The notes beneath the pieces were generated by a model, which saw only the letters and a program-made list of their open reading frames with translations, searched no databases and was not told where the DNA came from. Of a stretch of DNA of 64,000 nucleotides, positions 26,254 to 46,371 are shown piece by piece (the stretch's first letter is position 1; the number at the start of each line of letters is the position of its first letter). The position numbers were made by a program, and so were the translations under genes. Source of the stretch: a virus (Duplodnaviria > Caudoviricetes). Where the stretch lies: positions 72 through 64,071 of IMG/VR virus record IMGVR_UViG_2828341930_000001; one strand, given 5' to 3'.

Positions 26254-27423
26254 ATGGCCCTTGTTATGCGTGCCCGCAATTCCGTCGTCCTGGCGAAGGT
26301 GGAAACCACCGCCGGCACCGATGCCGCCCCCGTGGCCGGCACGGATGAGGTGCTGGTGGAAAACCTGTCCATCAGCTTCAACGCCAACAACATCCAAACC
26401 CATGAGGTCACCGGCGGGCTGGACAGCCTGGACGATATCGTGGGCGGCCTGAACGGCCAGATCAGCTTTGACGTCTATCTGAAGGGCAGCGGCACTCCCG
26501 GCACCGCGCCTGAGTTCGGCAAGTTGCTCAAGGCCTGTCAGTTCAGTGAAATCGTCACCGCCGCCGCCGTGGGCGCCCCCACCGCCATCAGCGCCGGCAC
26601 CACCACCACGGCCACGCTCGCGGCGCCCTTCGCCGCGACGGCGCAGCTGTACCGCTACATGCCCCTGATGATCAGCGGCGCCCCGTCCAGCGCCCTGTCC
26701 TTCATCAGCGACTACACCGTGGGCCGTGTCGCGACCCTGACGGACACCTTGGGCGCGGCCCTGACAACGTCCGCCCTGGTCCAGGTGCCGGTCAACGTCC
26801 TCTACCTGCCGTCCAGCGGCGCGCAGACCTACCTGACGCAATACGTCTACATGGACCAGCTGCTGTGGAAATTCGTCGGCTGCTGCGGCACCGTGAAATT
26901 CGATTTCAGCAGCGGCCAGGCGGTGAAGATGTCCTTCACCTTCTCCGGCCTGTTCGTCAGCAAGACGACGGCGTCCGCCCCGGCCGCCGCCAACCTGAAC
27001 TATCAGACCACCCGTCCGGTGTCGTGGCGTGGCGGCGTGGGTGGCGCCTTCACCCTGGGGTCCAACCTCATCTCCGGCAAACAGATGACGCTGGACGTGG
27101 GCAACACCGTGGTCTTCCCCGACGATCCCAACGCGCAGGACGGCTACGGCATCCCCATCATCACTGAACGCCGCACCACCGGCCAGCTGAACGTCAACGA
27201 GGCGCTGATCGCCACCCGCGACCTGATGACCGATTTCCGGGCAGGCACCAAGCGCAGCCTGCACGCCCGCGGCGGCACGGTGGCGGGCAACCGCTGGGCC
27301 TGCACCATGGGCGCCAACCAAATCCTGAGTGATCAGCCCAGCAACGACAGCGGCAAGCTGATGGCCCAAAACCAGTTCAAAACGGCCATCGCCGATGGTG
27401 GCATGGGCCTCTGTTTCTACTGA
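26254..27423 (+). CDS. Major tail tube protein
   Basis: RNSVVLAKVETTAGTDA..., LLKAC, KMSFTFSG. Confidence 0.8.
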   Translation: MALVMRARNSVVLAKVETTAGTDAAPVAGTDEVLVENLSISFNANNIQTHEVTGGLDSLDDIVGGLNGQISFDVYLKGSGTPGTAPEFGKLLKACQFSEIVTAAAVGAPTAISAGTTTTATLAAPFAATAQLYRYMPLMISGAPSSALSFISDYTVGRVATLTDTLGAALTTSALVQVPVNVLYLPSSGAQTYLTQYVYMDQLLWKFVGCCGTVKFDFSSGQAVKMSFTFSGLFVSKTTASAPAAANLNYQTTRPVSWRGGVGGAFTLGSNLISGKQMTLDVGNTVVFPDDPNAQDGYGIPIITERRTTGQLNVNEALIATRDLMTDFRAGTKRSLHARGGTVAGNRWACTMGANQILSDQPSNDSGKLMAQNQFKTAIADGGMGLCFY

Positions 27424-29874: not shown

Positions 29875-29878
29875 CGGC

Positions 29879-30304: not shown

Positions 30305-30307
30305 AGG

Positions 30308-30340: not shown

Positions 30341-30374
30341 CGCATTTGTGGGCACCCATTACGGCATGCGGACC

Positions 30375-30524
30375 ATGGCGAAGAAAACACCGAAAACCGA
30401 CGTGACGGATGAACTGATCGCCTCGCTGCAAGAGGCGGTAGGGATCATGGATGGAACGCTTGCCCCTGGCCGAGCCTATCAGGTCGAGGTGCCGGACTTG
30501 GATGTGAAGGCGGCGGGGGAATGA
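30375..30524 (+). pseudogene. Truncated HigA-like antitoxin N-terminus
   Basis: DELIASLQEAVGIMDG...VPDLDVKA then stop where the HTH would begin. Confidence 0.45.
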
Positions 30525-30558
30525 GGCGCTACCACATTTAGCGGTGCGGTATGTTAAC

Positions 30559-30650
30559 GGGGACACCCTCTTGACCCTCGGGGGCACCTTGAGGTATGTT
30601 TCAGGCAAGATTTGATGAGTGCGCCCGGGGCCGAAAGGCTGCCGGGCATT
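30559..30650 (+). promoter_or_regulatory. Late-promoter-like element plus GAAA hairpin (copy B)
   Basis: TTGACC-N18-TATGTT; aligns with 17167-17258. Confidence 0.6.
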
Positions 30651-30662
30651 TTCATGCGTGGT

Positions 30663-31064
30663 TCAATCCTTCGGCTTTTTCGGCCGACCCCAGATCGTCC
30701 GCCCCATCACGGTTTTCTCGCCGTAGGGCGGGTTGCTGGCGACCAAGTCGCCGTCCTTCATCTCAGCAGTCTCTTTCGCGAACCGCTTCGCCATCTCAAG
30801 GCCTGTGGCGCCCTCGCCCGCGAACGGGTCCAATGCCGGATGCTTCCGCAACCGCACGCCCGGTCCTTCGCCATTTTCCTGGATGAAGATGACACCGGCG
30901 GCCTCTAGGGCCGATTGCAGCACTGTGAGCGTCGCATTCCTTGGGGATGCTTTCTCGCCCTCGAATTGTCGAACGGTCACGGTTCCAACCTTGGCCCGTT
31001 GGGCCAACGTATCTTGGTTCCAGTTCAGTAGTGCGCGGGCCGCGCGGCATTGGGCAGGTGTCAT
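30663..31064 (-). CDS. XRE-family regulator
   Basis: MTPAQCRAARALLNWNQDTLA...ALEAAGVIFI..NGEGPGVRLRK. Confidence 0.9.
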   Translation of the reverse strand: MTPAQCRAARALLNWNQDTLAQRAKVGTVTVRQFEGEKASPRNATLTVLQSALEAAGVIFIQENGEGPGVRLRKHPALDPFAGEGATGLEMAKRFAKETAEMKDGDLVASNPPYGEKTVMGRTIWGRPKKPKD

Positions 31065-31176
31065 GGGCGCGACATTACACGTTTAGCCGTTTATGGTCAA
31101 AACTGTCGTTTTTCGATTGATCAAACTAAATGTGTCGCATATCGTCGTTTCTGTCGTTTTTAGACAGAGGTGCGCC

Positions 31177-31614
31177 ATGACAGCCTTATCTCGCCGCTCC
31201 ATTCTCTCCGCTGGTGCCGCCTCGCTGGCGGTGGTGTCGGCATCCGCCCCGGTCGCCGCCGGCCCAACGGCGGAAGCATCGGATGCTGACATGTGGGCCT
31301 TGCTGGCCCGCTGGCAGGCCTTGCAGCTGGCGATGGAGCATGCGCCCCGCAACGACGCGGAGGAAGCCGAATACGACCGCCGCTTCGCGGAAGCGGACAG
31401 CGTGCTGCTGACCATCTTCCGCATGCCGCCCCGCACGGCCATGGGCTGGGGCGTCAAGGCCTACCTGCTGCTGCACACCCAGTTCGGCCAGGGCCGGCAC
31501 GACGCCTTGCGCCCCGGCCTGCAATTCCTGACCGACGGCATAGAAGATCAGCTGAACCTGCTGTTGCTGGCGGACGTCGAGCGCCTGTTTGGCGACATCC
31601 CCCGCGCGGCCTGA
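31177..31614 (+). CDS. Hypothetical with twin-arginine-like N-terminus
   Basis: MTALSRRSILSAGAASLAV. Confidence 0.65.
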   Translation: MTALSRRSILSAGAASLAVVSASAPVAAGPTAEASDADMWALLARWQALQLAMEHAPRNDAEEAEYDRRFAEADSVLLTIFRMPPRTAMGWGVKAYLLLHTQFGQGRHDALRPGLQFLTDGIEDQLNLLLLADVERLFGDIPRAA

Positions 31615-31755
31615 CCCGCCGCGCCATCCCCGAGTTTCGGCCTGCAAGCCGAATGAGCGCGCCCACGGATTTCCCCGCTTCTTGGGGGCCGGTGGGTCGC
31701 GAGAGTGACCACCCGAACGCGCCGGGCTTGCAGCTCCGGCCCCCAAGGAGACCTG

Positions 31756-32043
31756 ATGATGAACGCAGCAAGTCCCATCCCCTTCGACGGCGTAAGCCTT
31801 CATATCCCGCTGCATGGCGGTGAGGTTTGGTCCGTGCAAGGCCGTGACCTTCTAAACGTCGCAGCGGTTCACACTGCCCACGCCGTTTTCGGCGAAGCTG
31901 GCGCCACTAGCCTGTGGGGCGATCTCGGCCTGCGCATTCTGCCCGACGAAGAATTGCGCCATCTGCTCGGTATGCTGAACCGGGACGTTCCTGATGATAC
32001 CTGGGACGATATCCTCGGCTCGTCTTCGGAAACGGAGGACTGA
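31756..32043 (+). CDS. Hypothetical protein
   Basis: AGGAG RBS. Confidence 0.55.
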   Translation: MMNAASPIPFDGVSLHIPLHGGEVWSVQGRDLLNVAAVHTAHAVFGEAGATSLWGDLGLRILPDEELRHLLGMLNRDVPDDTWDDILGSSSETED

Positions 32044-32044
32044 G

Positions 32045-32851
32045 ATGACCACGATGCTGACGGCTGTCCCGTTCCGGGATGACACACTCTTGGCCACCCG
32101 CACAGACAGTGGCGATGTGCTGGTGGCGGTCAAGCCGGTATGCGTTGCGTTGGGTTTGGATTGGAAGTCCCAGCAACTTCGGCTCCGTCGCGATGCGGTG
32201 CTGTCGGAAGGTAGGGTCATCATGACCCTACCTTCCGCCGGCGGCCTACAAGAGGCAATTTGCCTCCCCCTTCGCCTGATGAATGGTTGGCTTTTTGGCA
32301 TTGATGAAAACCGAGTTCGTCCAGAAATCCGCGACAAGGTCATTGCCTACAAGCGCGAATGCTATGACGTGCTGTGGCAGCACTTCCAACCGCCGGTTCC
32401 CACGTCGGTTCCAACAACTCAGCCTCTGTCGGATGCTTCAGGGGGTGACGAAATCCTGGAACTGACGGATGAACTGTCCGGCCTGCCCTACCAGGCCATG
32501 CGTGCCTGGATGGACATGATCCGCCTCGCGGGGCGGCTAAAGGGCCGGAACGCCGCCCTGGCGATGTGGGAACGGTCGCCGCTTCCCCAACTCCCCGGCG
32601 CGACCGTGACGCCCTCCGCCGTCGAGGTTGAGGACAGCCATACCGCCCATTTCGCGGCAGAAATGCTGACGACAGCGGAAGGCCAGTCCGTGCCCTTCGC
32701 CGCCGTCTATCAGGCCTATGAGCGTTGGTGCCGCCAGCAGCGTGAGATTGCCGCCAGCCGCATGGCGTTCAGCCGCCAAATGCGCGCCCTGGGCTTCGTC
32801 GCCACGCTCCGGCCGGCACCCATCCGGTTCCTGAACGTCGCCTTGGTTTGA
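32045..32851 (+). CDS. Phage antirepressor (P22 Ant N-terminal-like) with C-terminal winged helix
   Basis: VAVKPVCVALGLDWKSQ...CLPLRLMNGWLFGI...IAYKRECYDVLWQHF. Confidence 0.85.
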   Translation: MTTMLTAVPFRDDTLLATRTDSGDVLVAVKPVCVALGLDWKSQQLRLRRDAVLSEGRVIMTLPSAGGLQEAICLPLRLMNGWLFGIDENRVRPEIRDKVIAYKRECYDVLWQHFQPPVPTSVPTTQPLSDASGGDEILELTDELSGLPYQAMRAWMDMIRLAGRLKGRNAALAMWERSPLPQLPGATVTPSAVEVEDSHTAHFAAEMLTTAEGQSVPFAAVYQAYERWCRQQREIAASRMAFSRQMRALGFVATLRPAPIRFLNVALV

Positions 32852-32875
32852 CTTGGTGATATCCTCACGTTTTTG

Positions 32876-33334
32876 CTATTGGTTAAACTGATGCTGGCAA
32901 AAGCGGCAAATCCTAGCTTCATTTAGAATGGCCTCAGCACACCGAGGACATTTTTTGTAATTCGCGCGGATAGCGGTTGCTTGGGACGCCCCCGCCAAGG
33001 CCCAGAATAGAGAAATGATCCATCCCAGCAGGGTCCATCCAAGGAACAAGTTGAGGAACAACACAGCCGATCTGTTTCCGGCCCGTGAATGGAAAGCGAT
33101 TATGCTGGGGATAAAATAGATAAATCCCACCAGTAGCAGGACGACTACAAGTGTAAATGTCACGCTGCCTCCCTGAATGATAGTCGATGAAACCATTTGG
33201 CTCGGTCCGGCATGTGGATTAATCATGACCAGTGCGGCGTAGGCGGCAATTCCCACTGTCGCAATGGCAACGAGTATAAGCGCCAGACTGTTTGTGACGC
33301 CAATCAGCATCTTTGAGATTATACGGCTCACCAC
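32876..33334 (-). CDS. Superinfection immunity (T4 Imm-like) membrane protein with zinc ribbon
   Basis: YFIPSIIAF...LNLFLGWTLLGW...WA; CPRC...CRFC. Confidence 0.85.
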   Translation of the reverse strand: MVSRIISKMLIGVTNSLALILVAIATVGIAAYAALVMINPHAGPSQMVSSTIIQGGSVTFTLVVVLLLVGFIYFIPSIIAFHSRAGNRSAVLFLNLFLGWTLLGWIISLFWALAGASQATAIRANYKKCPRCAEAILNEARICRFCQHQFNQ

Positions 33335-33433
33335 AATGTACCCTTCAGGATGTAGTCCTCAAGCCTGGGATCGCATTCATAGCCAATAGAGTTGACCTTG
33401 CGGCGACCCATTTTGTTGCAGAAGTGAAGCTTC

Positions 33434-33757
33434 TCAGGTTTGTGGGATTTCGCTAGGCTTCTGTTCCTTCCATCCGCGCTTCAGATAGGCCTTCGGGATT
33501 TCGTCGCCAAAGCAGTAGGGCGTTATTGCCCACCAAAAAACGAACGTGGCAGCGCCTCCGCCGATTTTATCTGTCGCGCCTATAATATAGAGCGATAGGA
33601 GAGCTACTCCGGCTGTTGTCGCAGCGGCCAAAAGGCCGGCTCCCCAAGCTCTTTTGTAACAAAGATACATCGCTCCAAAGAGAAGTATTAGGACAGCGTC
33701 TTTCTTATCGACCGTCTCGGTATAGCCATTTCCGGATGGATGTTCGAACGTCCGCAT
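33434..33757 (-). CDS. Small membrane moron protein
   Basis: Hydrophobic segments; lower GC. Confidence 0.6.
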   Translation of the reverse strand: MRTFEHPSGNGYTETVDKKDAVLILLFGAMYLCYKRAWGAGLLAAATTAGVALLSLYIIGATDKIGGGAATFVFWWAITPYCFGDEIPKAYLKRGWKEQKPSEIPQT

Positions 33758-33817
33758 ATCGCTCCCCTATCGCAGCAGTCGATGCAACTTAGCAATTTGT
33801 GCGTGCAAAGAGTCAAC

Positions 33818-33845
33818 AGGGCTGCCGTTCGGGCGGCCCTTTTTG
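33818..33845 (+). terminator. Intrinsic terminator just upstream of tape-measure block
   Basis: AGGGCTGCC-GTTCG-GGCGGCCCT-TTTT. Confidence 0.65.
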
Positions 33846-33865
33846 TTGCAAAAATGGAGGGCCGC

Positions 33866-34516
33866 ATGGGTATCCAATGGGTGGACAAGACCTTCGAACA
33901 GGCCATGGATGACCTGGTGAAGGACATGGGCGCGGGTGTGCGAACGGCCGTTCGCAGCGCCGCCACCAGCCTGCATGACGAGTTGCGGCGGCAGGTGGAC
34001 GCGGCGGGCCTGGGCGATGGGTTGGCGGCGGCATGGCAGGTATACCTCTATGGCGTCCATACAAGCCTGAACCCCGCCGCGTTGATCTATTCCAAAGCGA
34101 CGCTGCTGCACGATGCCTTCAATACCTCTGTCACCATCACGGCACGAAACGCGCGGTGGTTGGTGATCCCGCTGCCCGCCGCCACGGCCCTGGGCTTCCA
34201 ACTACGGCCCCAGGGTAGGCGCGGGCGCCAACTGTCACCGCCGCTACCTGCGAAGTGGTCCAACGTGGATGCCGCGCAAGCCAAATGGGGCGCGTTGGAA
34301 TTCAGGCCGTTGCACGGTGGCAATAAGGCGCTGCTTGTGGCGCCAGCTTCCCAAGCCGGTGGCCGCTCCCCGGGTAGCGCGGCCCGCAAGGGTGTTCCCG
34401 TCTTCCTCCTGTTGCGCAATGTGAAGTTGGGAAAGCGCCTGGATGTTGAAGGCGCGCTCGCCCATGCGCGGGAGCAGCTTTATAGCGCCGTCATGGCGTC
34501 CCTGCCGAGCGCCTGA
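33866..34516 (+). CDS. Minor tail/virion morphogenesis protein (DUF6441-like)
   Basis: ELRRQVDAAGLG..LAAAWQ...ITARNARWLVIP. Confidence 0.65.
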   Translation: MGIQWVDKTFEQAMDDLVKDMGAGVRTAVRSAATSLHDELRRQVDAAGLGDGLAAAWQVYLYGVHTSLNPAALIYSKATLLHDAFNTSVTITARNARWLVIPLPAATALGFQLRPQGRRGRQLSPPLPAKWSNVDAAQAKWGALEFRPLHGGNKALLVAPASQAGGRSPGSAARKGVPVFLLLRNVKLGKRLDVEGALAHAREQLYSAVMASLPSA

Positions 34517-34518
34517 TC

Positions 34519-37500
34519 ATGGCGGACCGTACCCTCGCCATCCGGCTGTCACTTGATGGCATGACCGATTTCCGCGACCAGATGAAAGCTGCTGGACTGG
34601 AGGGGACTAGCGCCTTCAACACGATCAATGCGGCAATCGACGGTACTGGCCGAGGTGTCGAGCGCCTTGTGGTCCGGCTGGACCCGACAATTCGCGCCAC
34701 AACAAGCCTATCGGATGCCGCCGGCAAGCTGGCGTCGGCGCAGGCCTATCTGTCCACGGAAATGGCCAAGGGGGGCGACGCGGCCGAACGGACGGCCGCC
34801 AGCCTGAAGGTGGTGCAGTCCGCATCCGCCCAGGTCGCGGAAATTCAGGCCGCGTTGGCGGCCAAGACGATTTCCGCGACCGAGGCGACGCAGCAGCTGC
34901 GCCAAGTCATGAGTGGCACGGCGAATGACAGCGCGAAGGCGGCTGCGTCATTCAATGCCCTGAAGGCTAGCCTGGACCCCGCCTACGCCGCGACGCAAAA
35001 GCTGACGGAGGGCAGGAAGACACTGGATGCGGCCTTGGCGTCCGGCCTGACCACCGAAGCCGAGCATGCCGCCCTGTTGCAGAAGATGGGGGACGGCGCG
35101 CGGTTCGGCGCGACGCAGACGGCCATCCTGCAATCCGGCGTCATCAATACCTTTCAGTCCATCGCCTCCGGCCTGCCGGTGGGGCAGACGCTGCTGACGC
35201 AAACGGTGCAGACGGCCCCCGCCCTGGCGGGGATGGGCGTGGCGGCCCTGGCGGCGGCCGCGCCGTTCATCGTGTTGGGGGCCGCCGTGGCCGCGATGGT
35301 GGTCGCCCACGTCCAGGCCAATGCGGAGCTTAAGGAAACCAATCGCGTCCTGGCCCTGGCGGGCGGTGCCGCCGGGGTGACGTCGTCGCAGTTCTATGAA
35401 CTGGCGGATCAGGCCGCGCAGTCTGGTCAAATCACGCGGGCGTCCGCCCTGGCCTTGCAGCAGACCTATGCGGCGACCGGCAAGATCGGCGGCGACATGC
35501 TGTCCAAACTGGCGGCGGAAACCAAGGCCTGGGCAACCCTGACGGCGCAGTCGACGGAGGATGCGTCCAAGCAACTGGCGGGATATTTCAGCGACCCCAG
35601 CTCTGCCGCGACACAGTTGGCGAAGTCCTTGAACCTGTTGAGCCTGCAACAGGTTCAGACCATCCAAAGCATGGACAGGACGGGCAACAGCGCGGGGGCG
35701 CAGGCGGCCCTGTTCGCGGCCATCAAGGACAGGGCGGACCAGGCCAAGGAAAGCCTGGGCTACTTCGGCCAGGCCCTGAACAACATCGCCGACAATTGGG
35801 AGCGGATTAAGCATTGGGGTGCGCCGGACGCCCTGCCCCCTGTGCAGCGCCTGGCCGACGTGACGGCGCAGTATGACGCGGTGCTGAAAGAGCTGCGCGA
35901 AGACCAGGCCAAGGCCGCGACCGACGACGACTATGTCGGCGCCGTGGTGGCGGATCAGCAGAAACTGGCGGCCCTGGTGCGCCAAGCCGAAGACTTGCGC
36001 CGCAGCATCGCCAGCCAGACGCGGCAGGCGTCTGCCGGTGCCGACCAAACGGCGGCGAATGACCTGGGTGCCAAGGTCATGCCCATCGTCAACGCGCTGC
36101 CCGATGCGCAAATCAAGGGGCTGAATGCCGACATCCTGGCCCTGTCGCGGGCCTTCCTGACGATTGATCCCGCGACGGGCAAGAGCGTCATCTCCGCCAC
36201 CCAATATGCGCAAGCCGTGCAAGCGGCTCGGGCTCAAATTGAAGGCTTGCAGCAGCCCTATCAGAAGTGGCTGGACCAGCAGCGTATCGAACAGCAGGTA
36301 CTGGCGGCGGACCCGGCCTTGCGGGACCAGTTGCGCGCCCGGTTGCAGGCGGAATATGCGGCCCGGACGGTCAATGCCTCCGCCATCGAAAAGGGTGCGA
36401 TGGCCGCGGGCGCGGAGGCGTCTGTGGTCCGCGCCCGCGATGACGCCTATCTGCGAAGCGCGGCGGCGGCCAGTGCGTCCACCGCCGCCACCCTGACCGT
36501 GGCGGATGCCTACGGCGTGTCCGCCGAAGCGGGGTTGCGGGCCGCCGAAGCGGCCAAGGTGCAGGACCAGGCGCGAACCGATCTGACGGTGCGAACCCAT
36601 CAGCAAGAGGTGGTGGAGCGGAACCTGGCGGCGGCCTCCGCCGCGTCCTACGCCGCGCTGGCGCAGCAGGTGCAGCAGCTGGACGTGGCGACGCAACAGC
36701 AAGACGCCCTGGCGGCGGCTTCGGCGAAGGGCGCCCAGGCCCTGGCGGACCAGACCATCGCCAACCAAGCGGCGGTGATGGTGCAAAAGGCCATCAACGA
36801 CGCCAAGGCGGCAGGCATCACCCTGACGCAGCAGGAAATCGAGGTGAAGCGCCAGGAAATCGAGGTGGACCTTAAGCGGCAGGCCTTGGATCAGCAGCGT
36901 ATCGCCGCCGACAACGAATTGCGCTCCGCCAACGACAACATCACCTACCTGCAAGCCGAAATCGACACGCTGGGCATGGATAGCCAAGCCCGCGCCGTCC
37001 TGCTGGCTCAGATGAAGGCTGAGCAGCAGCTGCGAGCGAACAATCTGGCGCTCTATTCGTCGGAGGACGCGGCCGATAAGGAAAAGGTGCGCAGCCTCAT
37101 CGACGCCGCCGGCAAGACGGCGGCCCTGACGGCGGAAAACGAGCGGCTTACCGCTGCCTATCAGACGTTCAGCGACTTGGGGACCAGCACGTTTGACGCG
37201 ATGATCCAAAAGGTGGTGTCCGCTTCCGATGCCACGGCCACATGGAAGGACATGTTCCGAGGCCTGGTGGCGGAGATCGAAACGGCGGGCATCAAGCTGG
37301 CCGTGTTGAACCCGCTGAAGAACTGGCTGTCGGGTGACAACAAACTGCCCACTCTCAGTGACCTGACCAAGGTTGCCGGGAATGCGCAGGGTGCAGCCGG
37401 AAGCGGTTCGTCCAGCGGCGCGGCGAACGATAACCCGCTGGCCATCAACACCGGAACCGGCCTGTTGAAATACCTGGACATCGGCGGTTCGTCCAGCGGT

Positions 37501-40500
37501 GGGACTGGGGCCGCCGCCGGCTCCGCCGCGCAGTCGGGGGGCTGGCTGTCCGGACTTGGGTCCGTCAATTGGGCGGGAACGCTGGGCATCGCGGGTGCGT
37601 CCGCCGCGGTCGCCAGCACGCTGGGCAACTTGTTCGGCCAGTCGGATATCCAGCAGCGCAACAGCAGCATCTTCGGCGCCTTCCTGGGCGGCATCCCCGG
37701 CGCAATCCTGGGATCGATCTTCGGGCCCAGCAAAAGTGTCGGGCCGGTGGGCCAAATCGGGATCACACAGGGCGGCTTGGGTGCCGGCCAGGTGGTGGGC
37801 CTGGGGCCGGTGGGCGTGGACAACGGCCAAAGCCGAAGCGATGCGACGGCCTATGGCAAGAGCGCCATTTCCGCCATCAATAGCGCGGCGCAGACGGCGG
37901 GCGTTTCAAATCTGGTGTTGTCCCAGAACAGCGGATTTTTAAACGGCAACTATATAGAAACGATCAATGGGACGATCAATACGTTCGTAAACGGCGTGAA
38001 GAAGTCGTTCACGGACGGTGACGCGGCCATCGCCGACTTCGCGAAGCGCCTCTTGCAGGATGACCATTCGGGCGCGCTGAGCGCCGATGTGAAAACGGCC
38101 CTGGCCAACACCAAGGCGACCACGTCGGCGGAGCTGAACAGCGATATCGCCTTCGCCAAGAGCTTTCGCGACACGCTGTCCAGCTATTCCCAGGGCTTGG
38201 CGGCGGCGGACGATGTGCAGTTGCAGGCCAAGGCCAGCATCGTCAGCACGATCCAAAGCCTACAGGATTTCAAGAAGACCACGGCCGATCTCGGGCTGGA
38301 CACCGCCGCCGCCAACACCGCAGCCAGCGATTACCTGAAAAGCCTGCTGGGCATCACCCCCGCCGCCGCCACGCTGGACGCCACGCAACAGGCCGTCGCG
38401 AAGATAGACGGCGCGGTCCAGGGCGCCATCCCCTATCTGGCCGAATTCGGCATCAGCATCGATGACGTGACGGCGGCGGCCAAGAACGCCAAGGCCACGC
38501 TGTTGAGCGACTACATGGCCAAGCTGAACGATGCCTTCCTGCAAGCGGGCGACGCGGCGGAACAGGCGGCCTACGCGGAACAGCAGCTGGTGGCCCAACG
38601 CGCCACGGCCATCACCGACATCAAGGCCCTGGGCGGCTCAGAGGCCGATGTGGCCACGGCCAACACGGTCTATGCCCGGCTGATGCAGAACGTGGTGGAC
38701 CAGGCGCAGCTGTCGGGCGACGCGTTCAATGAGTTGCTGTCGCTGATGCCCGACCTGACGGGCCAAATCCACGCCTACAGCGCGGCGGTCGCCGACGCCA
38801 CGGACACGACAGCCGCCGCCACGGCGGCGGCCAACCTGGCGGCGGCCAACCGGGCGGCGGCGCAGGCCAAGGGCCAGGTCACCTATCTCAACGCCACCGG
38901 CGGCACGGTCACCGGGGCGCAGGACCTGACGGCCAGCCTGTCGGGGGCAACCGACCTGTCGGCCATCATCGCCACCATCGGCACGGACCTGGACAACATC
39001 ACCGCCCTGGGCAAGGCGGGGGTGGACAGCACCGACGCCTATCGCGGTGCCTTCGACAGGCTCAACGCCGCGCTCACCGCCGGTACCATCGCGCCGGCCG
39101 ACTACACCACCGCCTTGGGGGTACTGACTAGCCGGTTCCAGACGGCGCAGCAGTCGGTGTCCAGCCTGGCCGCGACGGCGTCGCAACTGACATCCGCCGG
39201 GGCCAGTGTCCAGGCCTATATCGACAAGGCCAAGTCGGGGGGTGTCACCAGCTATCTCAGCCCAACGGATCAGCTGTCCAACGCCCGGGACGCCTTTAAT
39301 CGCCAGCTGGCGCTTGCCCAGGCCAACGACAGCACGGCCCTGGGGGGCATCACTCAATACGCGGATACCTATCTCAGCGCCCTGACCAAAACGCAGGGGT
39401 CAGGCACCGACACCACGGCCACCATAAACGCGGTGCTGGCGCAATTGTCGGCCCTGCCGGCCACGCAGTCCTTCAACGATAAAAACCTGGCCCTGTTGGG
39501 CCAAATCGCGGCCAACACCAACAACGCCGCGGCGTCCCTGGCGCGCGCGGACGCCAACGGCGACAAGGTGATAACCTGGGCGGAATTCCAGAGTTGGGGC
39601 ACCGGCAATACGGCGTCGCTGAAGGCGATCGGCGCCCTGCTGAACCTGCCCGGCGGCGGCGATCTGGCCAGCATTTTCGCGGCCATCGACACCAATGGCG
39701 ATGGCACCATCAGCCAGCTGGAAAGCACCCGCGTCAGCCTGCTGTCCGCCCTGACGGGCCTGCCCAGCCCCACCGCCCTACAGGTGGGTGGTGCCCTGGC
39801 GCCCTATTTCGGCGCCCTGACATCGAGTACCAATGGCCGCCTGGACCTGGCCACATTTACCGCCGTCATGTCCGGCAAGGCCGACAACGGCACCCTGCAA
39901 TATTGGTTCGGGCAGCTGGACAGCAACGGCGATGGCGCCATCAGCCAGCTGGAGGTCACCCGGGCGCAGCTGCTGGACGGCCTGTCCGGCATCGCCACGC
40001 CCACCGCCCTACAGGTGGGCGGCGCCCTGGCGCCTTATTTCCAGCAGCTGGCGGCCATCGGCAACGGCCGCCTTGATCTGCCCACGTTTACCGCCGTCAT
40101 GGCCGGCAAGGCCGACAACGGCACCCTGTCCTACTGGTTTGCGCAGCTGGACAATAATGGCGACGGCGCCATCAGCCAGCTGGAGGTCACCCGGGCGCAG
40201 TTGCTGTCCGGCCTGTCCGGCATCGCCAGCCCGACGGCGCAACAGGTAGGCGGCGCCCTCAAGCCTTATTTCGATGATTTAACAGCCAGCACGAATGGCC
40301 TGCTCAGCCAGGCGACGTTCAAAAGCGTGCTGTCGGGCAAAGCCGACGACAGCACGTTGACCACGTGGTTCAAGCAGCTGGACGCAAATGGCGATGGCCA
40401 GCTGTCAAAATTGGAGACATTGAATTCCAGTACGGGCGACGTCACGAGCGCGGTCGGCGACCTCGCGGGGAGCGGTGCCAACGGCACGTTGGCAGACATC

Positions 40501-41046
40501 GCCGTGATCATCGCCACCGGCTTCAAGATCGTGAAAGACACGATCGATGCGACCAACATCCTGATCTACAACGCGGATGTGTGGCAGCGGGCGAAATGGG
40601 GCGATGAGTGGCCACGGCTGGACGGTTTGCGCGACGTCCTGGACGCCATCAACGTCTATTCCGGGAAGGTCACCTGGAATACAGCGCAGACGGCCGCAAA
40701 ATTGGGCGGCACACCCGCCTATGCCACCGGCACGGACTATCACCCCGGCGGCCTGGCCATCGTGGGCGAGCGTGGGCCGGAGGTGGCATGGCTGCCCACC
40801 GGCACCAGGGTGTGGCCCAACGGTTCGGCCCCCTCGTTCGGCGGCGGCTCGGTCAATACCGCAGGCGTCGAGGCGCGGTTGGATACGATCATCCGTCAGA
40901 ACAACCAGTTACTGGCGCAAATCCGCGCGGGCGGCTTGGCCAGTGTCGGCGGCTTGGGGAGGGTGGAAACGGCGATCAAGTCCACCGCGAACGCCGTTCG
41001 CGGTCCAGTTGGCGGCCTCACCACCATACAGCGGCGGGCGGGCTGA
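34519..41046 (+). CDS. Tape measure protein with C-terminal EF-hand repeats
   Basis: 2175 aa Ala-rich helical protein; C-terminal YATG...VGERGPE motif. Confidence 0.9.
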   Translation: MADRTLAIRLSLDGMTDFRDQMKAAGLEGTSAFNTINAAIDGTGRGVERLVVRLDPTIRATTSLSDAAGKLASAQAYLSTEMAKGGDAAERTAASLKVVQSASAQVAEIQAALAAKTISATEATQQLRQVMSGTANDSAKAAASFNALKASLDPAYAATQKLTEGRKTLDAALASGLTTEAEHAALLQKMGDGARFGATQTAILQSGVINTFQSIASGLPVGQTLLTQTVQTAPALAGMGVAALAAAAPFIVLGAAVAAMVVAHVQANAELKETNRVLALAGGAAGVTSSQFYELADQAAQSGQITRASALALQQTYAATGKIGGDMLSKLAAETKAWATLTAQSTEDASKQLAGYFSDPSSAATQLAKSLNLLSLQQVQTIQSMDRTGNSAGAQAALFAAIKDRADQAKESLGYFGQALNNIADNWERIKHWGAPDALPPVQRLADVTAQYDAVLKELREDQAKAATDDDYVGAVVADQQKLAALVRQAEDLRRSIASQTRQASAGADQTAANDLGAKVMPIVNALPDAQIKGLNADILALSRAFLTIDPATGKSVISATQYAQAVQAARAQIEGLQQPYQKWLDQQRIEQQVLAADPALRDQLRARLQAEYAARTVNASAIEKGAMAAGAEASVVRARDDAYLRSAAAASASTAATLTVADAYGVSAEAGLRAAEAAKVQDQARTDLTVRTHQQEVVERNLAAASAASYAALAQQVQQLDVATQQQDALAAASAKGAQALADQTIANQAAVMVQKAINDAKAAGITLTQQEIEVKRQEIEVDLKRQALDQQRIAADNELRSANDNITYLQAEIDTLGMDSQARAVLLAQMKAEQQLRANNLALYSSEDAADKEKVRSLIDAAGKTAALTAENERLTAAYQTFSDLGTSTFDAMIQKVVSASDATATWKDMFRGLVAEIETAGIKLAVLNPLKNWLSGDNKLPTLSDLTKVAGNAQGAAGSGSSSGAANDNPLAINTGTGLLKYLDIGGSSSGGTGAAAGSAAQSGGWLSGLGSVNWAGTLGIAGASAAVASTLGNLFGQSDIQQRNSSIFGAFLGGIPGAILGSIFGPSKSVGPVGQIGITQGGLGAGQVVGLGPVGVDNGQSRSDATAYGKSAISAINSAAQTAGVSNLVLSQNSGFLNGNYIETINGTINTFVNGVKKSFTDGDAAIADFAKRLLQDDHSGALSADVKTALANTKATTSAELNSDIAFAKSFRDTLSSYSQGLAAADDVQLQAKASIVSTIQSLQDFKKTTADLGLDTAAANTAASDYLKSLLGITPAAATLDATQQAVAKIDGAVQGAIPYLAEFGISIDDVTAAAKNAKATLLSDYMAKLNDAFLQAGDAAEQAAYAEQQLVAQRATAITDIKALGGSEADVATANTVYARLMQNVVDQAQLSGDAFNELLSLMPDLTGQIHAYSAAVADATDTTAAATAAANLAAANRAAAQAKGQVTYLNATGGTVTGAQDLTASLSGATDLSAIIATIGTDLDNITALGKAGVDSTDAYRGAFDRLNAALTAGTIAPADYTTALGVLTSRFQTAQQSVSSLAATASQLTSAGASVQAYIDKAKSGGVTSYLSPTDQLSNARDAFNRQLALAQANDSTALGGITQYADTYLSALTKTQGSGTDTTATINAVLAQLSALPATQSFNDKNLALLGQIAANTNNAAASLARADANGDKVITWAEFQSWGTGNTASLKAIGALLNLPGGGDLASIFAAIDTNGDGTISQLESTRVSLLSALTGLPSPTALQVGGALAPYFGALTSSTNGRLDLATFTAVMSGKADNGTLQYWFGQLDSNGDGAISQLEVTRAQLLDGLSGIATPTALQVGGALAPYFQQLAAIGNGRLDLPTFTAVMAGKADNGTLSYWFAQLDNNGDGAISQLEVTRAQLLSGLSGIASPTAQQVGGALKPYFDDLTASTNGLLSQATFKSVLSGKADDSTLTTWFKQLDANGDGQLSKLETLNSSTGDVTSAVGDLAGSGANGTLADIAVIIATGFKIVKDTIDATNILIYNADVWQRAKWGDEWPRLDGLRDVLDAINVYSGKVTWNTAQTAAKLGGTPAYATGTDYHPGGLAIVGERGPEVAWLPTGTRVWPNGSAPSFGGGSVNTAGVEARLDTIIRQNNQLLAQIRAGGLASVGGLGRVETAIKSTANAVRGPVGGLTTIQRRAG
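39688..40420 (+). repeat. 231 bp (77 aa) tandem repeat in TMP
   Basis: DxNGDG starts at 39688, 39919, 40150, 40381. Confidence 0.9.
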
Positions 41047-42575
41047 TGCCGTACCTGGCGGATTTCTACCCCTACCGGGTGTCGGCGGGGGCTGAGGTGC
41101 TGTTGCCGTTCAGTGACGTGGGTTTCGTGACGGGGCCCGGCGACAGCCCGCCTAACACCCTGTATGAGCGCGCCATTGATGTGCCTCTAACGGAAACCCG
41201 GTCACTGACCAGCGGCGACACGGTCGGGGGCTATTCCTCCCCCTCCGGCGGCACCATCACCATCACCAACATGGATGGATCCCGTAACGCCATCGTGGGG
41301 CCGGACTACCGCTGGTCCGGCCGGCGCTTCGTCCTGTACTACACCGACAAGGACAGCCCCACGCTGGCGGATTTCCAGGTGGCGCGGACAGGGGTGGTTG
41401 ATCAGGTCATCGGCGGCACCACCATCACCATCCGCATCCTCGACCGCAGCGCGCGGTTTGACGTGCCCGCCACCACCGGCACCTTCGCCGGCACGGGCGG
41501 TATCGAGGGCACGGCGGAAATGGCGGGGCGCGGCCTACCGTGGGCCTACGGGGATGTGGTGCAGGTGTCTCCGGTGTCCCTGGGCGCCCTGCTGATCTAC
41601 ATGGTTGATAAGCGCGGGTTCACCGCCCTGGTGTGGGTCAAGGATGGCGGCAAGGTTCTGCCCAGCGCCGGGCCCGACGTCGCCACCTACGCCGCTTTGG
41701 CGGCACTCAGCATGTCCGGATATGACTACGCCACCTGCAAGGCGTTGGGGCTGATCCGGCTCGCGACCGATACAGCCTCGACGCTTATCGTCCGCGTCCA
41801 GGGCATCACCGTCAGTGGCACCTATGTGACGTCGTTCCCGGATATCGTCCGTCACATCGTCACCACCATGGGCGACATGACCTCCGGCGACATCAACGCC
41901 GCCTCCCTCGCCGCATTCGCGGCGCTGCCGGGTGGGTCCGCCGCGCTGGCGTACTACCATGACGGGGCGTCCGATGTGACCATCCGCCAAGTGGTGGATG
42001 AGCTGGCGTCCGACGTCGGCGCCTGCTGGGGCTTCGACCTGCTGGACCAACTGTACATGGTGCGTTTCGACGCGCCGGCCGATACCCCGGACTACACGGT
42101 GACCGACCGCGACTATACGGAGCTGGTGCCGCAGGAGGTGCCGCGGCGCCTGCGCAATTGCACCCTGGGCTATGAATGGCATTACACGGTGCTGGACGAC
42201 AGCAGCATCCTGCCCGGCGCCGGCACCGTGCCGGAGGCCGACAAGCCCGGTTTGAAAGCCCAATGCCTGTGGGCGCCCACCGCGACCAATGCCGACGTGG
42301 CGGCGCACGAACTGCTGTACAGCGACGTGAGGGTTCAAACCCATTTCGTGAATTCCGCCGATACGGAGTTCGAGGCCAACCGCCGGGCCGTGGTGTACGG
42401 CGACTGGTCTGCCGCCTACTCCCTCACTATGCCGCTGATCCCTGGCCTGTTGCCCGGCTGCACCGTCGCTATCGTCGACCCCGTGTGGGTGCCGGGCGGA
42501 TCGCACAGCATCGTGGTCACCAGCGTACAGCCGGCGGGAAGTTCCAATCTCATGACCGTGACGGGGCGGGGCTGA
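41046..42575 (+). CDS. Tail tip/hub protein
   Basis: Follows TMP with TGATG coupling. Confidence 0.7.
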   Translation: MPYLADFYPYRVSAGAEVLLPFSDVGFVTGPGDSPPNTLYERAIDVPLTETRSLTSGDTVGGYSSPSGGTITITNMDGSRNAIVGPDYRWSGRRFVLYYTDKDSPTLADFQVARTGVVDQVIGGTTITIRILDRSARFDVPATTGTFAGTGGIEGTAEMAGRGLPWAYGDVVQVSPVSLGALLIYMVDKRGFTALVWVKDGGKVLPSAGPDVATYAALAALSMSGYDYATCKALGLIRLATDTASTLIVRVQGITVSGTYVTSFPDIVRHIVTTMGDMTSGDINAASLAAFAALPGGSAALAYYHDGASDVTIRQVVDELASDVGACWGFDLLDQLYMVRFDAPADTPDYTVTDRDYTELVPQEVPRRLRNCTLGYEWHYTVLDDSSILPGAGTVPEADKPGLKAQCLWAPTATNADVAAHELLYSDVRVQTHFVNSADTEFEANRRAVVYGDWSAAYSLTMPLIPGLLPGCTVAIVDPVWVPGGSHSIVVTSVQPAGSSNLMTVTGRG

Positions 42576-43438
42576 TGGGTAACGTCGCCATTCTGTGGAA
42601 GCATGTATCCGACATAGGCGCCCTTACCGATGGCGGGGTCGCCGGTTGGGTGGAAAGTGGCGGGCTGAGCCTGCAAAACCTGCGGCTTCAGGACATCAAG
42701 AAGCCCGCCCGTTTCCTGAACATCGCCAGCCATGCCGCCCGGATGCAGGTGGACATGGGTAGCCTGCAGGCGGTGTCCAGCGTCGTGCTTGTCGCGCACA
42801 ACGCATCCGCCGCCGCCACCCTGACCCTAACGCTGTCGAATACGCCAGATTTCAGCGCCCCGGTGGCGACCGCGACGGGCCCCATGTGGCTGCCCACGGC
42901 CGTGCCGGGCACCCTGCCGTGGGGCGTTTGGCCGTGGAGCGGCGTTGACCGGGCCGCATACCCCACCACCTACACGGCTTATCTGCTGCTGTCGCAAACC
43001 TATTTCGCCCGCTACCTGCGGGTGGAGGTGACGGACCCCGCCAACCCGGATGGATATTTCCAGGCCGGGCGCCTGCTGGCGGGCGTCGCGTACCAGCCGC
43101 CGCGCAATTACAGCTATGGCCTGCACGTTAAGCCTGTGGACCCATCACAGACTTATGAAACCCCCGGCGGCGCCTTCGGCGCGGCATCCCGGCCCATGCG
43201 GCGGGAATTCGGGCTTCCTTTCGACTATCAGTCCAGGGAATTCGCCTGGGGCGTCCATCACGACATGTGCATGCGGCTGGGCATCCGACGGGAGTTGTTC
43301 ATCATCCTGAACCCGGATGAGGACGCGCCGTATCTGGCGCGGCAGATGTTCTATTGCCGGATGACTGACATGTCCGAGGTCACCAACACCCATCACAATT
43401 TGTGGGGCTTTTCCCCCACCTTTGCGGAGCTGATCTGA
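42575..43438 (+). CDS. Distal tail protein
   Basis: ARYLRVEVTDPANPDGYFQAGRL..., NYSYG. Confidence 0.7.
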   Translation: MGNVAILWKHVSDIGALTDGGVAGWVESGGLSLQNLRLQDIKKPARFLNIASHAARMQVDMGSLQAVSSVVLVAHNASAAATLTLTLSNTPDFSAPVATATGPMWLPTAVPGTLPWGVWPWSGVDRAAYPTTYTAYLLLSQTYFARYLRVEVTDPANPDGYFQAGRLLAGVAYQPPRNYSYGLHVKPVDPSQTYETPGGAFGAASRPMRREFGLPFDYQSREFAWGVHHDMCMRLGIRRELFIILNPDEDAPYLARQMFYCRMTDMSEVTNTHHNLWGFSPTFAELI

Positions 43439-46371
43439 TGTCTACCAGCTGGGTATTAAACGGCACCACCTATTCCGAGGATGATTTCTCGCTGGAGAAT
43501 GTCGGTTACTACAAAATCTGGGCGCGGTTCTGGAGAGACGCGCTGGCAGAAATCGGCAACTCCAGCCCAAACCTCGTGATGCAGTCGGTCACCGCGCTGG
43601 TGGCCATCGTCCAGGGCTATGCGGCGCAGGCGGCGGCGGCGCGGGATGGGGCGGTGGCCGTGTCGGGCCTGGGCGACCTGGGCGCATTCTCGGGGCAGGT
43701 CCAGGCCGGCGCACCCGCCGCAGTGTTCTTTTACGATACGACGCGGGACGGGGACGGCGGCGCGTGGCGTCTACGCTGCGCCGGAAAGACCTGGGCGACG
43801 CAGGTGCTGAATACCAGCACTCGGGGCAAGCGCGCGGATTTCCCGGGCCGGGTGATGTTCGTAGCCGATGCCACGGCCCGAACCGTCACGGCCTATGACT
43901 GCGACCAGTCCACGCCCGTGATGTGGGCGGTGATCGGCGGCCCCGGCAAGAATGTCGACCTAGGGGCGGGCGTGCCGCAGATGCTGGCCCGCAACGGCTG
44001 CCTGTACATCGCGAGCAACTCGACAGGGTTGTTCGAGATCAATTTCCTGGGCGCCGAGATCGTGACCCGCGTCACGGCGGGCGGCACCTACATCCGGGGA
44101 GAGCCGGGGGTGGTCAATGCCAACAACGCGCTGTCGGAAAGTGTTTACCTCCCGGCCCGGGCGCTGGTGACCAACGGCGCGGCGGGCGTGGACGTCACCG
44201 TCCTGCCGGGCGCGCCGATTGACCGGGCCACCGGGCTGCCCCGCCCCACCATCGCCGTGGCGACGCCCGGCGGGGTCAGTGTCATCCACCCATCGGGCCA
44301 GGTCGCCACCATCACCGACGCGAGCGGCGCCGCCGCCGTCTGGTTCACGTCCGATGGGCGCTTGGGCTACATCTCCGGCGGCGGCATCATCAGCCTTGGC
44401 CCCGTCCCCTATTCCACTGTCGCGGCGACCGCTTGGCGCCAGTACATTTACGGCGACGCCGCCACATCCGGGGCGATCAACCGGCCGGGGACGGTGGCGG
44501 TCACCAAGGCCATCGTGGGGGGGTGGTTCGGCGGCGGCGCCGGCCTCTGTCTGCTGGCGGAAGACGCCGTCAATCCCACCGCCGGCATGCAGGCGGTGGT
44601 CACATCGGCGGGAAATACAGCCTATGGCGGCGGGGCGTTCAACAGCGGGTGGATGCCAGGCGATATCCGCCTGGCATTGAGTTCCACCGCCACCGGCAGC
44701 GTCACGACCAGCGGGGAGCTGGTCGCCAACGGCACCTTCGCCAGCAGCCTGACGGGCTGGACGGCGGGCGCCGGATGGGCGCAATCCAGCGGTGCCGCCG
44801 CCAAGACGGCGGGTTCCGCCGGAAACCTGTCGCAGACCATCGCCACGGTGGCGGGCCAGACTTATCTGTTCGCGGCCGACGCCACCCGCAGCGCCGGCAC
44901 CCTGACGGTGCAGGTGGCGGGTGCGACGGTCGCGACCGTCACGGCCAACGGCACCATGCTCGTCCAGTTCACGGCGACGGCGTCGAGCACGGCGATTTCA
45001 TTCGCCGGCGATGCCAGCTTCGCCGGCACGGTGGATAACGTTTCGGTGATGGGGGCGGAGCCCGACCGCTGCGTCAGGGCCATCGGCATGCGGGTGATGG
45101 GCAGCCTCACCAGGGCGGCGGTATCCGCCATCGCCCCCACCGATCTATCGGCCTGGGGTGGTTTCAGCACCAGCAACTACCTGCTGCAACCGCCATCCGC
45201 CGCGTTGGATTTCGGCACCGGGGATTTCAGCCTGTCCGTGTGGCTACGCGCGGGGGCCGTCAACCAGTTCGTGGTCGCGCGCCAGCCGGGGACGGGTGCC
45301 GGCTATGGGACAACGCCAAATTGGGAGCTGTTCACCAACGGCTCGGGCAACTATCAGTTCAACATCAGCGATGGCACGAACGGCGCCTTCGTGGCGGATG
45401 CCGGCACCCATACCGCCGGCACCAGTTATGACCATGTGGTGGCCGTCAAGCGTGGCAGCACCCTGGAAATCTGGGTCAATGGATGGCGTGCCGCGACCGC
45501 CAGCGCGGGGGCCGTGGGGTCCCTGACCAATACCGCCGCATCACTGTTGGTCGGGTGCGGATATTCCGGTGGGGCGTTGACCGGCGCATGGTCGGCCGGC
45601 GCCGTCGCGCTGCTGCGGATCAGCGCGACGGCGCCCACCCCGGAACAGATCACCCGCATCTTCGCGGATGAGGCGCCGCTGTTCCGGGCTGGCGCCCGCT
45701 GCGTGTTGGGGGGCGCCTCCGCCGCCGTCCAGGCCCTGGCCCATGATCCCGACACGGGCGCGCTCTATGCCGCCAAGGGGGACGGGACCTCGGTATTCCA
45801 GGGGCTGATCCGCACGGCGCACCTCGCCGGGTTGGCCGCGACCAACAACAGCGACAACCATACGGGGGTGGCGGCGCGACAGGGCGGCTATGTCATCGCG
45901 ACCGGCAACCAGGCCGTCGCCGGCCAACCACCCATCTTCCTGCGGGACCGCATCCTGTCTGACAGGGTGCCGGTGGCGCCCATCGATGGCGTCCATGTCG
46001 CCTTCCCGGTGGGGCGGACCACGGACGCCACGGCCACGGTGGTGGCCCGCTTCCCGGTGGCGGAAGGCGACCACGGCCAGGTGGTCTTCAACGTCACGGC
46101 GGCGGAATGGGGGGCGGCGCCAACGGAAATCGACGGCTATCAGGTGCGCGCCCGTTTTTACCGGCTGCCCAACGGCAATGTGACGATAACGGGCGTCCAG
46201 CACCTGGGCACGGACACGGAGAGCAACACGACCGCGATGGATGCCACCCTCGTGGCCTTGAACGATGCCGCCCCCGGGGTTGGGCTTCAAGTCCAGGGGG
46301 TGGCGGGCAAAACCATCGGCTGGGCGTCCGCGGCCGAAATCACCCGCTTCGGCGGCGCCCGTTACAGCTGA
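43438..46371 (+). CDS. Tail fibre/receptor-binding protein with CBM-like and LamG/concanavalin-like domains
   Basis: ELVANGTFASSLTGW...SQTIATVAGQTY; DFGTGDFSLSVW...DHVVAVKRGSTLEIWVNG. Confidence 0.8.
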   Translation: MSTSWVLNGTTYSEDDFSLENVGYYKIWARFWRDALAEIGNSSPNLVMQSVTALVAIVQGYAAQAAAARDGAVAVSGLGDLGAFSGQVQAGAPAAVFFYDTTRDGDGGAWRLRCAGKTWATQVLNTSTRGKRADFPGRVMFVADATARTVTAYDCDQSTPVMWAVIGGPGKNVDLGAGVPQMLARNGCLYIASNSTGLFEINFLGAEIVTRVTAGGTYIRGEPGVVNANNALSESVYLPARALVTNGAAGVDVTVLPGAPIDRATGLPRPTIAVATPGGVSVIHPSGQVATITDASGAAAVWFTSDGRLGYISGGGIISLGPVPYSTVAATAWRQYIYGDAATSGAINRPGTVAVTKAIVGGWFGGGAGLCLLAEDAVNPTAGMQAVVTSAGNTAYGGGAFNSGWMPGDIRLALSSTATGSVTTSGELVANGTFASSLTGWTAGAGWAQSSGAAAKTAGSAGNLSQTIATVAGQTYLFAADATRSAGTLTVQVAGATVATVTANGTMLVQFTATASSTAISFAGDASFAGTVDNVSVMGAEPDRCVRAIGMRVMGSLTRAAVSAIAPTDLSAWGGFSTSNYLLQPPSAALDFGTGDFSLSVWLRAGAVNQFVVARQPGTGAGYGTTPNWELFTNGSGNYQFNISDGTNGAFVADAGTHTAGTSYDHVVAVKRGSTLEIWVNGWRAATASAGAVGSLTNTAASLLVGCGYSGGALTGAWSAGAVALLRISATAPTPEQITRIFADEAPLFRAGARCVLGGASAAVQALAHDPDTGALYAAKGDGTSVFQGLIRTAHLAGLAATNNSDNHTGVAARQGGYVIATGNQAVAGQPPIFLRDRILSDRVPVAPIDGVHVAFPVGRTTDATATVVARFPVAEGDHGQVVFNVTAAEWGAAPTEIDGYQVRARFYRLPNGNVTITGVQHLGTDTESNTTAMDATLVALNDAAPGVGLQVQGVAGKTIGWASAAEITRFGGARYS

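Follow-up and report, generated by a model that had tools for sequence, protein, structure and literature searches.

We examined a 64,000-nucleotide (nt) stretch of DNA, hereafter the window, from IMG/VR virus record IMGVR_UViG_2828341930_000001 (positions 72 to 64,071; Duplodnaviria, Caudoviricetes). It consists of high-GC (about 66%) bacterial DNA with a prophage that, judged from its sequence, is lambda-like and of siphovirus type. Our subject is an array of predicted EF-hand calcium-binding pairs in the C-terminal part of the tape measure protein (TMP) of this prophage, a protein of 2175 amino acids (aa) encoded by a single open reading frame (ORF). A preliminary description, made from the letters of the window and a list of its translated frames, had drawn attention to EF-hand loops in this gene and had suggested several checks, the results of which are included below.

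EF-hand pairs in the tape measure protein

The ORF matches Pfam TMP_2 over aa 189-383 (E 7e-24; 85 bits, cut-off 30.2) and phrog_24, 'tail length tape measure protein', over aa 8-988 (E 1.9e-24). Furthermore, it has the position of a TMP gene, being the largest gene of the tail module and lying between the tube and DUF6441 genes on one side and the tail-tip genes on the other. Because the profile matches and the gene position agree, we assign ORF 34519-41046 as the tape measure protein, and the EF-hands thus lie in a TMP, as the preliminary description had proposed.

Five canonical 12-residue EF loops are present in frame in this ORF, starting at aa 1678, 1724, 1801, 1878 and 1955 (nt 39550, 39688, 39919, 40150 and 40381). 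Each carries ligand residues at positions 1, 3, 5 and 12, a glycine at position 6 and a hydrophobic residue at position 8. A relaxed EF-loop pattern yielded five matches, compared with 0.065 expected per shuffled protein and a maximum of three in 20,000 shuffles, and it had no match in the TMP outside aa 1660-1990. The PROSITE scan suggested in the preliminary description gave a divided answer: the strict pattern PS00018 matches three of the five loops, and the other two fail solely at the residue after Glu12. Using the Pfam EF-hand models (PF13499/PF13202/PF13405/PF00036), we obtained scores above the gathering threshold for EF-hand_5 (71.2 bits; threshold 25.9), EF-hand_6 (54.0; 25), EF-hand_7 (54.6; 30) and EF-hand_1 (46.5; 25.4), with E ranging from 3e-20 to 1.5e-12 across the four. 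The EF-hand_8 model remained below its Pfam cut-off in the TMP.

Consecutive starts among the last four canonical loops differ by exactly 77 aa, or 231 bp. The same 231-bp period was recovered by Tandem Repeats Finder (39688-40398; 77-82% matches). Within this region, one repeat unit (lobe C, below) is 80% identical in its DNA to the preceding 231-bp copy. Degenerate loops start at aa 1768, 1845 and 1922, each exactly 33 aa upstream of its canonical partner at aa 1801, 1878 and 1955. The five loops, their exact period and the alternation with degenerate partners had all been read from the letters beforehand, and all were recovered here. By this pattern, the array appears to have grown as a 77-aa (231-bp) unit was duplicated in tandem.

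To obtain a structural model, we ran AlphaFold2 on aa 1660-1990 with an alignment of 15 relatives. The model (predicted local distance difference test, pLDDT, 85.2; predicted TM-score, pTM, 0.73) contains 17 helices and shows the helix-loop-helix fold that the preliminary description had named as a condition for its reading. Eight helix-loop-helix hands associate into four EF-hand pair lobes, and each of the eight loops contains a two-residue beta-bridge, the signature of paired EF-hands. When the model was compared with the PDB using Foldseek, each of the top 50 matches was either an EF-hand or Ca2+-binding protein or a chain from a complex that includes one. Among them are troponin C, calmodulin, centrin, calcyphosine and secretagogin, and the probability is 0.97-1.00 for most. 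Global TM-scores were low, in line with a chain made up of several lobes. Model residues 100-163 (aa 1759-1822, lobe B) superpose on polcalcin Phl p 7 with Z 9.0 and 2.5 Å over 65 residues (VIA), and the same segment superposes on calmodulin and troponin C lobes with Z 7.3-7.9 at ~2.4 Å (VIA). Because this segment superposes on single lobes, each pair is predicted to consist of a first loop and the loop 33 aa later, consistent with the earlier statement that these EF-hands work in pairs. The array had no match at E<=1e-3 in the BFVD viral structure library.

The array spans aa ~1662-1976. In the model, both loops of lobe A are canonical, and lobes B, C and D each combine a degenerate first loop with a canonical second loop:

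39502..39753 (+): EF lobe A, canonical loops at aa 1678-1689 (nt 39550-39585) and aa 1724-1735 (nt 39688-39723)
39793..39984 (+): EF lobe B, degenerate loop at aa 1768-1779 (nt 39820-39855) and canonical loop at aa 1801-1812 (nt 39919-39954)
40024..40215 (+): EF lobe C, degenerate loop at aa 1845-1856 (nt 40051-40086) and canonical loop at aa 1878-1889 (nt 40150-40185)
40255..40446 (+): EF lobe D, degenerate loop at aa 1922-1933 (nt 40282-40317) and canonical loop at aa 1955-1966 (nt 40381-40416)

From the ligand residues we predict five working Ca2+ sites in the eight hands: two in lobe A and one, in the second loop, in each of lobes B, C and D. The canonical loop of lobe D (type D.NGDGQLSKLE) is the most conserved loop across the family.

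Two other calcium-binding repeats were considered and rejected. For dockerin type I, there is no PF00404 match at E<=1, the loops are 33 aa apart, and the hands have full entering and exiting helices. For RTX repeats, which form a beta-roll (PF00353), there is likewise no Pfam match at E<=1, and the predicted structure is helical.

The gene in its prophage setting

Outside the array, the TMP can be divided as follows:

34519..41046 (+): TMP gene, 2175 aa, a single uninterrupted ORF, assigned by Pfam TMP_2, phrog_24 and position
35083..35667 (+): TMP_2 domain, aa 189-383, with a hydrophobic segment inside it at aa ~233-270 (Pfam and hydropathy scan)
37519..37818 (+): Gly-rich, nearly uncharged segment, aa ~1001-1100, with 26 Gly and 3 charged residues per 100 (composition and hydropathy)
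39094..39546 (+): conserved helical pre-module, aa 1526-1676, which precedes the repeat slot family-wide (phmmer and AlphaFold2)
40417..41043 (+): C-terminal region, aa 1967-2175, which has a 'GERGPE' beta-hairpin motif near aa 2078-2092 and a long terminal helix (AlphaFold2, low confidence)

The stretch at aa ~1001-1100 is comparable to the Gly-rich and hydrophobic stretches of lambda gpH and T5 pb2 (PMC12617516; 10.1101/2022.09.20.507954). A second AlphaFold2 model, covering aa 1526-2175, predicts a confident helical module before the array (pLDDT ~90 over aa ~1580-1650 of the pre-module) and, after it, low-confidence long helices, a beta-hairpin and the terminal helix. The EF array lies ~210-510 aa from the C-terminus of the TMP. 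TMPs from phages of C. difficile, Bradyrhizobium and Microcystis have the 'GERGPE' motif too. The 2175-aa protein contains zero cysteines. An antisense open frame of 960 aa runs within the TMP gene (34948-37830, -) and is probably a stop-poor frame of GC-rich DNA and no gene.

The gene order in the window is large terminase, portal, S49-type protease, major capsid, Phage_tube_2, DUF6441, TMP, three tail-tip ORFs and a GTA-type holin. The genes that bear on the assignment of the tail are:

18071-20248: large terminase gene
26254..27423 (+): tail tube protein (Pfam Phage_tube_2, E 6e-12)
33740..34516 (+): DUF6441 gene, abutting the TMP start (Pfam DUF6441, E 3e-19)
41046..46371 (+): three tail-tip ORFs (phrog_8917, phrog_8610 and a 989-aa Laminin_G_3 protein), in the same order as at the Nitrospirillum bahiense locus (L002)

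We saw no sheath gene in the window, which argues for a siphovirus-type tail. A DUF6441 gene also lies directly upstream of the TMP gene at the N. bahiense locus (9354-10001 of L002) and at locus L003, and its product is, judged by position only, a probable tail assembly chaperone. The 989-aa tail-tip protein (43402-46371, +) carries at aa 592-750 a Laminin_G_3 domain, of the concanavalin-like lectin type, and has no PHROG match; this domain content makes it a likely host-recognition protein.

Other features of the window lie further from the array. The early genes on its left side include methylase-like, ParB-like, BRO-N and Prim-Pol genes. The GC content dips to 0.57-0.63 (compared with ~0.66) at 28000-34000, between the tail tube and TMP genes; inside this dip, at 31994-32851 (+), lies a P22-type anti-repressor gene (P22_AR_N, phrog_524), resembling a moron that entered the tail module. 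At the right end (54000-62615), the GC content is again lower (0.52-0.59), with genes for a transposase-like helix-turn-helix protein (55692-56768, -), a C5 cytosine methylase (61203-62615, -) and, between them, a SNF2-family helicase (59397-61187, +). In addition to this C5 methylase, the window has a divergent methylase-like gene of 698 aa at 3026-5122 (-).

Relatives and turnover of the repeat slot

Searching with the array, we found an orthologue in N. bahiense (68% identity, 2097 aa) that has both TMP_2 and EF-hands, and whose locus is syntenic with the window, including the upstream DUF6441 gene. Several metagenomic TMPs with the array also have TMP_2 or TMP_3. Relatives of 1800-2400 aa in Halomonas, Vreelandella and Salinicola bear no annotation beyond 'EF-hand domain-containing protein'. 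In Halomonas elongata (L001), the relative occupies the TMP position of a lambda-like prophage, in a layout syntenic with the window, with Phage_tube_2 and several small ORFs upstream and tail-tip genes downstream. A narrow-pattern search of genome contigs, based on a 6-row alignment, returned one giant ORF, from a Methylorubrum salsuginis prophage, and otherwise mostly small cellular EF-hand proteins.

Among the viral contigs of IMG/VR, 35 carry the array, always in the C-terminal part of a giant ORF. These ORFs measure 1316-2810 aa where they are uncut by the contig end, and the last loop lies 164-434 aa from the C-terminus. The array is present once in the 7.1-Mb genome of the window, and a sample of 400 other genomes of the same class contained one match at E<=1e-10, within a 2182-aa frame. 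It was found in none of 50,697 cultured phage records searched by tblastn with the whole TMP. The tblastn matches to C. difficile phages were rejected: the C-terminal 'GE.GPE' region accounts for them, and the TMPs of these phages are without EF loops. A search with the C-terminal 186 aa returned just two weak relatives.

Small four-loop EF-hand proteins of 146-300 aa with signal peptides, sharing the loop type 'LDANGDGQL', occur in Pleomorphomonas, Bryobacterales, Verrucomicrobia and others (loci L045, L047 and L053, with the match at 6001-6360 of the last, and also L042 and L049-L052). By their sequences, such small cellular proteins are possible sources of the phage module.

Because EF-hands in the query would bias the result, we used the pre-module (aa 1526-1676) to survey the family, comparing it by phmmer with 1.84 billion cluster representatives; this gave 323 matches at E<=1e-3. 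Loops were counted in the best 150 of these 323 plus three known members, with 151 representatives tallied. At least two canonical loops are present in 56 of the 151, one in 10 and none in 85, suggesting that the EF array is present in about 40% of a large giant-TMP family. In EF-positive members that are near full length, the first loop begins 2-109 aa after the pre-module and the last lies 137-364 aa before the C-terminus, and only five loops in the whole surveyed set lie upstream of the pre-module. Together, these counts indicate that the EF array is a recurrent module at a fixed slot after the pre-module.

Across relatives, the repeat unit consists of a first loop, a linker of the form 'F..M.GKA.D..L..WF..L' and a second loop of type D.NGDG.IS.LE. 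We gathered 178 units from 74 proteins with a hidden Markov model. In the second loop, the residues are D1 in 99%, N3 in 89%, D5 in 91%, G6 in 93%, I/L/V8 in 97% and E12 in 98%, and in the first loop D1 in 72% and E12 in 70%, percentages that carry the caveat that the model rewards ligand positions. Positions 2, 7, 10 and 11 of the second loop are variable in the same units. Several lineages show independent decay of the first loop (to 'KWTRNQQLTADQ' in Halomonas, for instance), and the second loop is intact in all array relatives compared. The survey of homologs that the preliminary description had suggested thus returned nearly invariant ligands in a widely distributed array. Relative to the N. 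bahiense orthologue, the ratio of nonsynonymous to synonymous substitution rates (dN/dS) is 0.35 in the array, 0.32 in the pre-module, 0.26 in the N-terminal 1000 aa, 0.67 in the middle and 0.51 in the C-terminus, with dS at ~0.85, near saturation. The value for the array is on a par with those of the most conserved TMP parts.

The EF-negative relatives are also TMPs. Some have in the slot a 26-aa repeat of the form 'V.R.IEQ..GR.LT..ER..L' in 7-11 copies, as in P0076 (aa ~1500-1690), P0083 and P0104. Homology between this repeat and the EF unit was considered and rejected (hhalign probability 0.7%, which is no evidence for it). A Pfam scan of four EF-negative relatives showed no known domain in the slot. 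In P0087, another EF-negative TMP, a DUF4214 domain lies near the C-terminus, at aa 2071-2120, as a further distal accessory domain. On a rapidly built pre-module tree (123 rows, short alignment), EF presence requires 16 changes, an upper bound, compared with 41.7 when labels are shuffled. This difference suggests a trait that is inherited yet repeatedly swapped. In these sequences, the slot behaves as a repeat-expansion region in which EF-hand pairs are the commonest of several fillings.

Possible role of calcium

With its ligand residues in place, the array very probably binds Ca2+. The best overall explanation, to which we give about an even chance, is a genuine array of EF-hand pairs that provides Ca2+-dependent stabilising or anchoring of the distal TMP. 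That Ca2+-loaded lobes would give stability or anchorage to the distal TMP part, which is ejected first, is a tentative proposal that we hold to be possible but less likely than not. Free Ca2+ is sub-micromolar in the bacterial cytoplasm and far higher in soil water, sea water and the periplasm. During tail assembly in the Ca2+-poor cytoplasm, the array would be largely Ca2+-free; in Ca2+-rich surroundings, either around the released virion or in the host periplasm, it would become Ca2+-loaded and rigid. The folded lobes could then stabilise or anchor the distal TMP part, and virion stability or the onset of DNA delivery would thereby be tied to external calcium. The small cellular proteins that share the loop type mostly have signal peptides, and this may be taken as weak evidence that fits a use of the array outside the cytoplasm.

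TMPs are metastable in the tail lumen, with their C-termini in the tip, and are expelled first (T5: 10.1101/2022.09.20.507954; lambda: PMC12617516). After expulsion, their hydrophobic segments enter the membrane, and the proteins make up a channel through the periplasm (10.1101/2022.09.20.507954; PMC12617516). Because the array lies ~210-510 aa from the C-terminus, it should be among the first TMP parts out. Proteases reach T5 pb2 and lambda gpH* within intact tails (10.1101/2022.09.20.507954; PMC12617516). Since tail lumens admit solutes and even proteases, Ca2+ should load the array upon virion release, before ejection, and for this reason we favour a stabilising or anchoring module over a switch that is fired by ejection.

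Several observations weigh against a role centred on calcium. Three of the eight loops are without D1, D3 and E12, and 85 of the 151 relatives are without EF-hands. In 15 of these 85, the 26-aa repeats fill the slot, never together with EF loops. The existence of EF-negative relatives, 15 with an unrelated repeat in the slot, means that Ca2+ binding is not essential to the TMP family, and the alternative tandem repeats suggest that spacing or length may be part of the role. The number of EF loops varies from 1 to 14 among relatives, as expected of a spacer. As for timing, Ca2+ probably has access to the lumen before ejection, making an ejection-timed Ca2+ switch unlikely. Finally, the folded lobes would need to fit a tail lumen of ~4 nm, which may be a constraint.

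The main rival explanation takes up these points. It holds that the array is chiefly a length or spacer module that tunes TMP and tail length or spaces the C-terminal tip-binding part, with EF pairs as one of several interchangeable helical repeats and Ca2+, where it binds at all, only keeping the fold and conveying no signal. The C-terminal remainder after the pre-module is equally long in EF-negative and EF-positive relatives (median 382 and 379 aa), and in the former it is filled by other repeats, such as the 26-aa units in 15 proteins. Variation from 1 to 14 loops, the recent duplicates (80% DNA identity here, identical 65-aa EF copies in the relative P0003) and gain or loss of EF-hands up to ~16 times on the pre-module tree all suit such a module, and duplication of tandem units is an established feature of TMPs (Belcaid et al. 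2011, cited in PMC7296036). A pure spacer, however, has no need of near-invariant ligands (D1 99%, E12 98%) in proteins down to ~25% identity, and it leaves unexplained why one intact site is kept per pair despite repeated decay of the partner. We consider a chiefly spacing role possible but less likely than not.

An adaptor resembling calmodulin, centrin or dockerin, in which Ca2+-loaded lobes expose a hydrophobic pocket and clamp an amphipathic helix of another TMP chain, of a tail-tip protein or chaperone, or of a host envelope protein, would agree with the many structural matches to peptide-bound, Ca2+-loaded lobes of calmodulin, centrin and troponin C, and with the conserved aromatic and hydrophobic positions by the loops (F8, F24, L28, L40/F41 and L44 of the unit). 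Those hydrophobic residues, however, also form the normal EF-hand core, and Dockerin_1 gives no match at E<=1, leaving the adaptor improbable. Still less credible, to the point of being very nearly dismissed, is a decaying passenger, that is, a captured fragment of a host EF-hand gene that is functionless now. Such an origin would account for the three degenerate loops among eight, and small cellular EF-hand proteins of the same loop type do occur in Alphaproteobacteria, but the array has a dN/dS of 0.35, and its position and ligands are conserved over Alpha- and Gammaproteobacterial prophages and 35 viral contigs.

A more elaborate version of calcium dependence, which we regard as a long shot, would make the array a calcium-gradient device. 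Extended and Ca2+-free in the cytoplasm, it would compact in millimolar Ca2+ after lysis and thereby shorten or tension the TMP. This could make room for the DNA end, as in the movement of lambda gpH* down the tube, and load the metastable state from which the TMP is expelled; if its end reaches the cytoplasm of the next host, release of Ca2+ there might then report that the envelope has been passed. If true, this device would be the molecular basis of the calcium requirement for infection in this phage group.

Many tailed phages need calcium for DNA delivery, and to our knowledge few of the components that sense or use it have been identified. The array is a recurrent, selectively maintained, predicted calcium module in a protein that leaves the tail first and forms the trans-envelope channel. 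It offers mutable targets, either the five Glu12 residues or whole 77-aa units, for probing the coupling of calcium to assembly, stability and delivery. Moreover, a defined slot that accepts different repeat arrays bears on the evolution of tail length and tip functions. Databases list these relatives under generic names, several being labelled only 'EF-hand domain-containing protein', such that the annotation of giant ORFs is also affected.

Comparison with known systems

TMPs with accessory domains, such as the C-terminal metallopeptidase of T5 pb2 and peptidoglycan hydrolase motifs, likewise have a distal C-terminal extra domain beyond a hydrophobic or Gly-rich stretch, delivered to the envelope on expulsion (10.1101/2022.09.20.507954; PMC12617516). 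Unlike in T5 pb2-type TMPs, the insert described here is a non-enzymatic, predicted metal-binding array of variable copy number with no known cleavage site. Its individual lobes resemble, in the model, those of calmodulin, troponin C and polcalcin, with the same D1, N/D3, D5, G6, I/L8 and E12 loops and beta-bridged pairs that superpose at 2.3-2.6 Å over 60-65 residues. They differ in lying inside a 2175-aa virion protein, in having one intact site in three of the four lobes, and in the family linker 'GKA.D..L..WF..L' with loops 33 aa apart.

Ca2+-driven folding of RTX repeats in type I secretion was reportedly described by Bumba et al. in 2016. RTX repeats share the logic of being Ca2+-free inside the cell and folding on extracellular calcium, a likeness in possible mechanism only: the TMP has no GGxGxD nonapeptides and no HemolysinCabind match, and its predicted fold is the alpha-helical EF-hand and not a beta-roll. 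The LysGH15 lysin (PMC4022735) is likewise a phage protein that acts on the envelope and has an EF-hand-type calcium site. That site is a single one in a CHAP domain, in contrast to an array of EF-hand pairs in a structural tail protein.

The tandem units of TMPs reported by Belcaid, Bergeron and Poisson (2011) share with the array their duplication and loss and a copy number that varies between relatives. Their units are helical periodicities of short length, 11-13 or ~29 residues, in which large side chains mark the repeat, in contrast to the whole predicted Ca2+-binding domain of 65-77 aa that is repeated here. Full-text searching of the literature found no description of an EF-hand pair array in a TMP, in agreement with the first impression that none had been published. 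TMPs with embedded accessory modules and tandem duplication within TMPs are known already, and what appears new is an EF-hand array as such a module.

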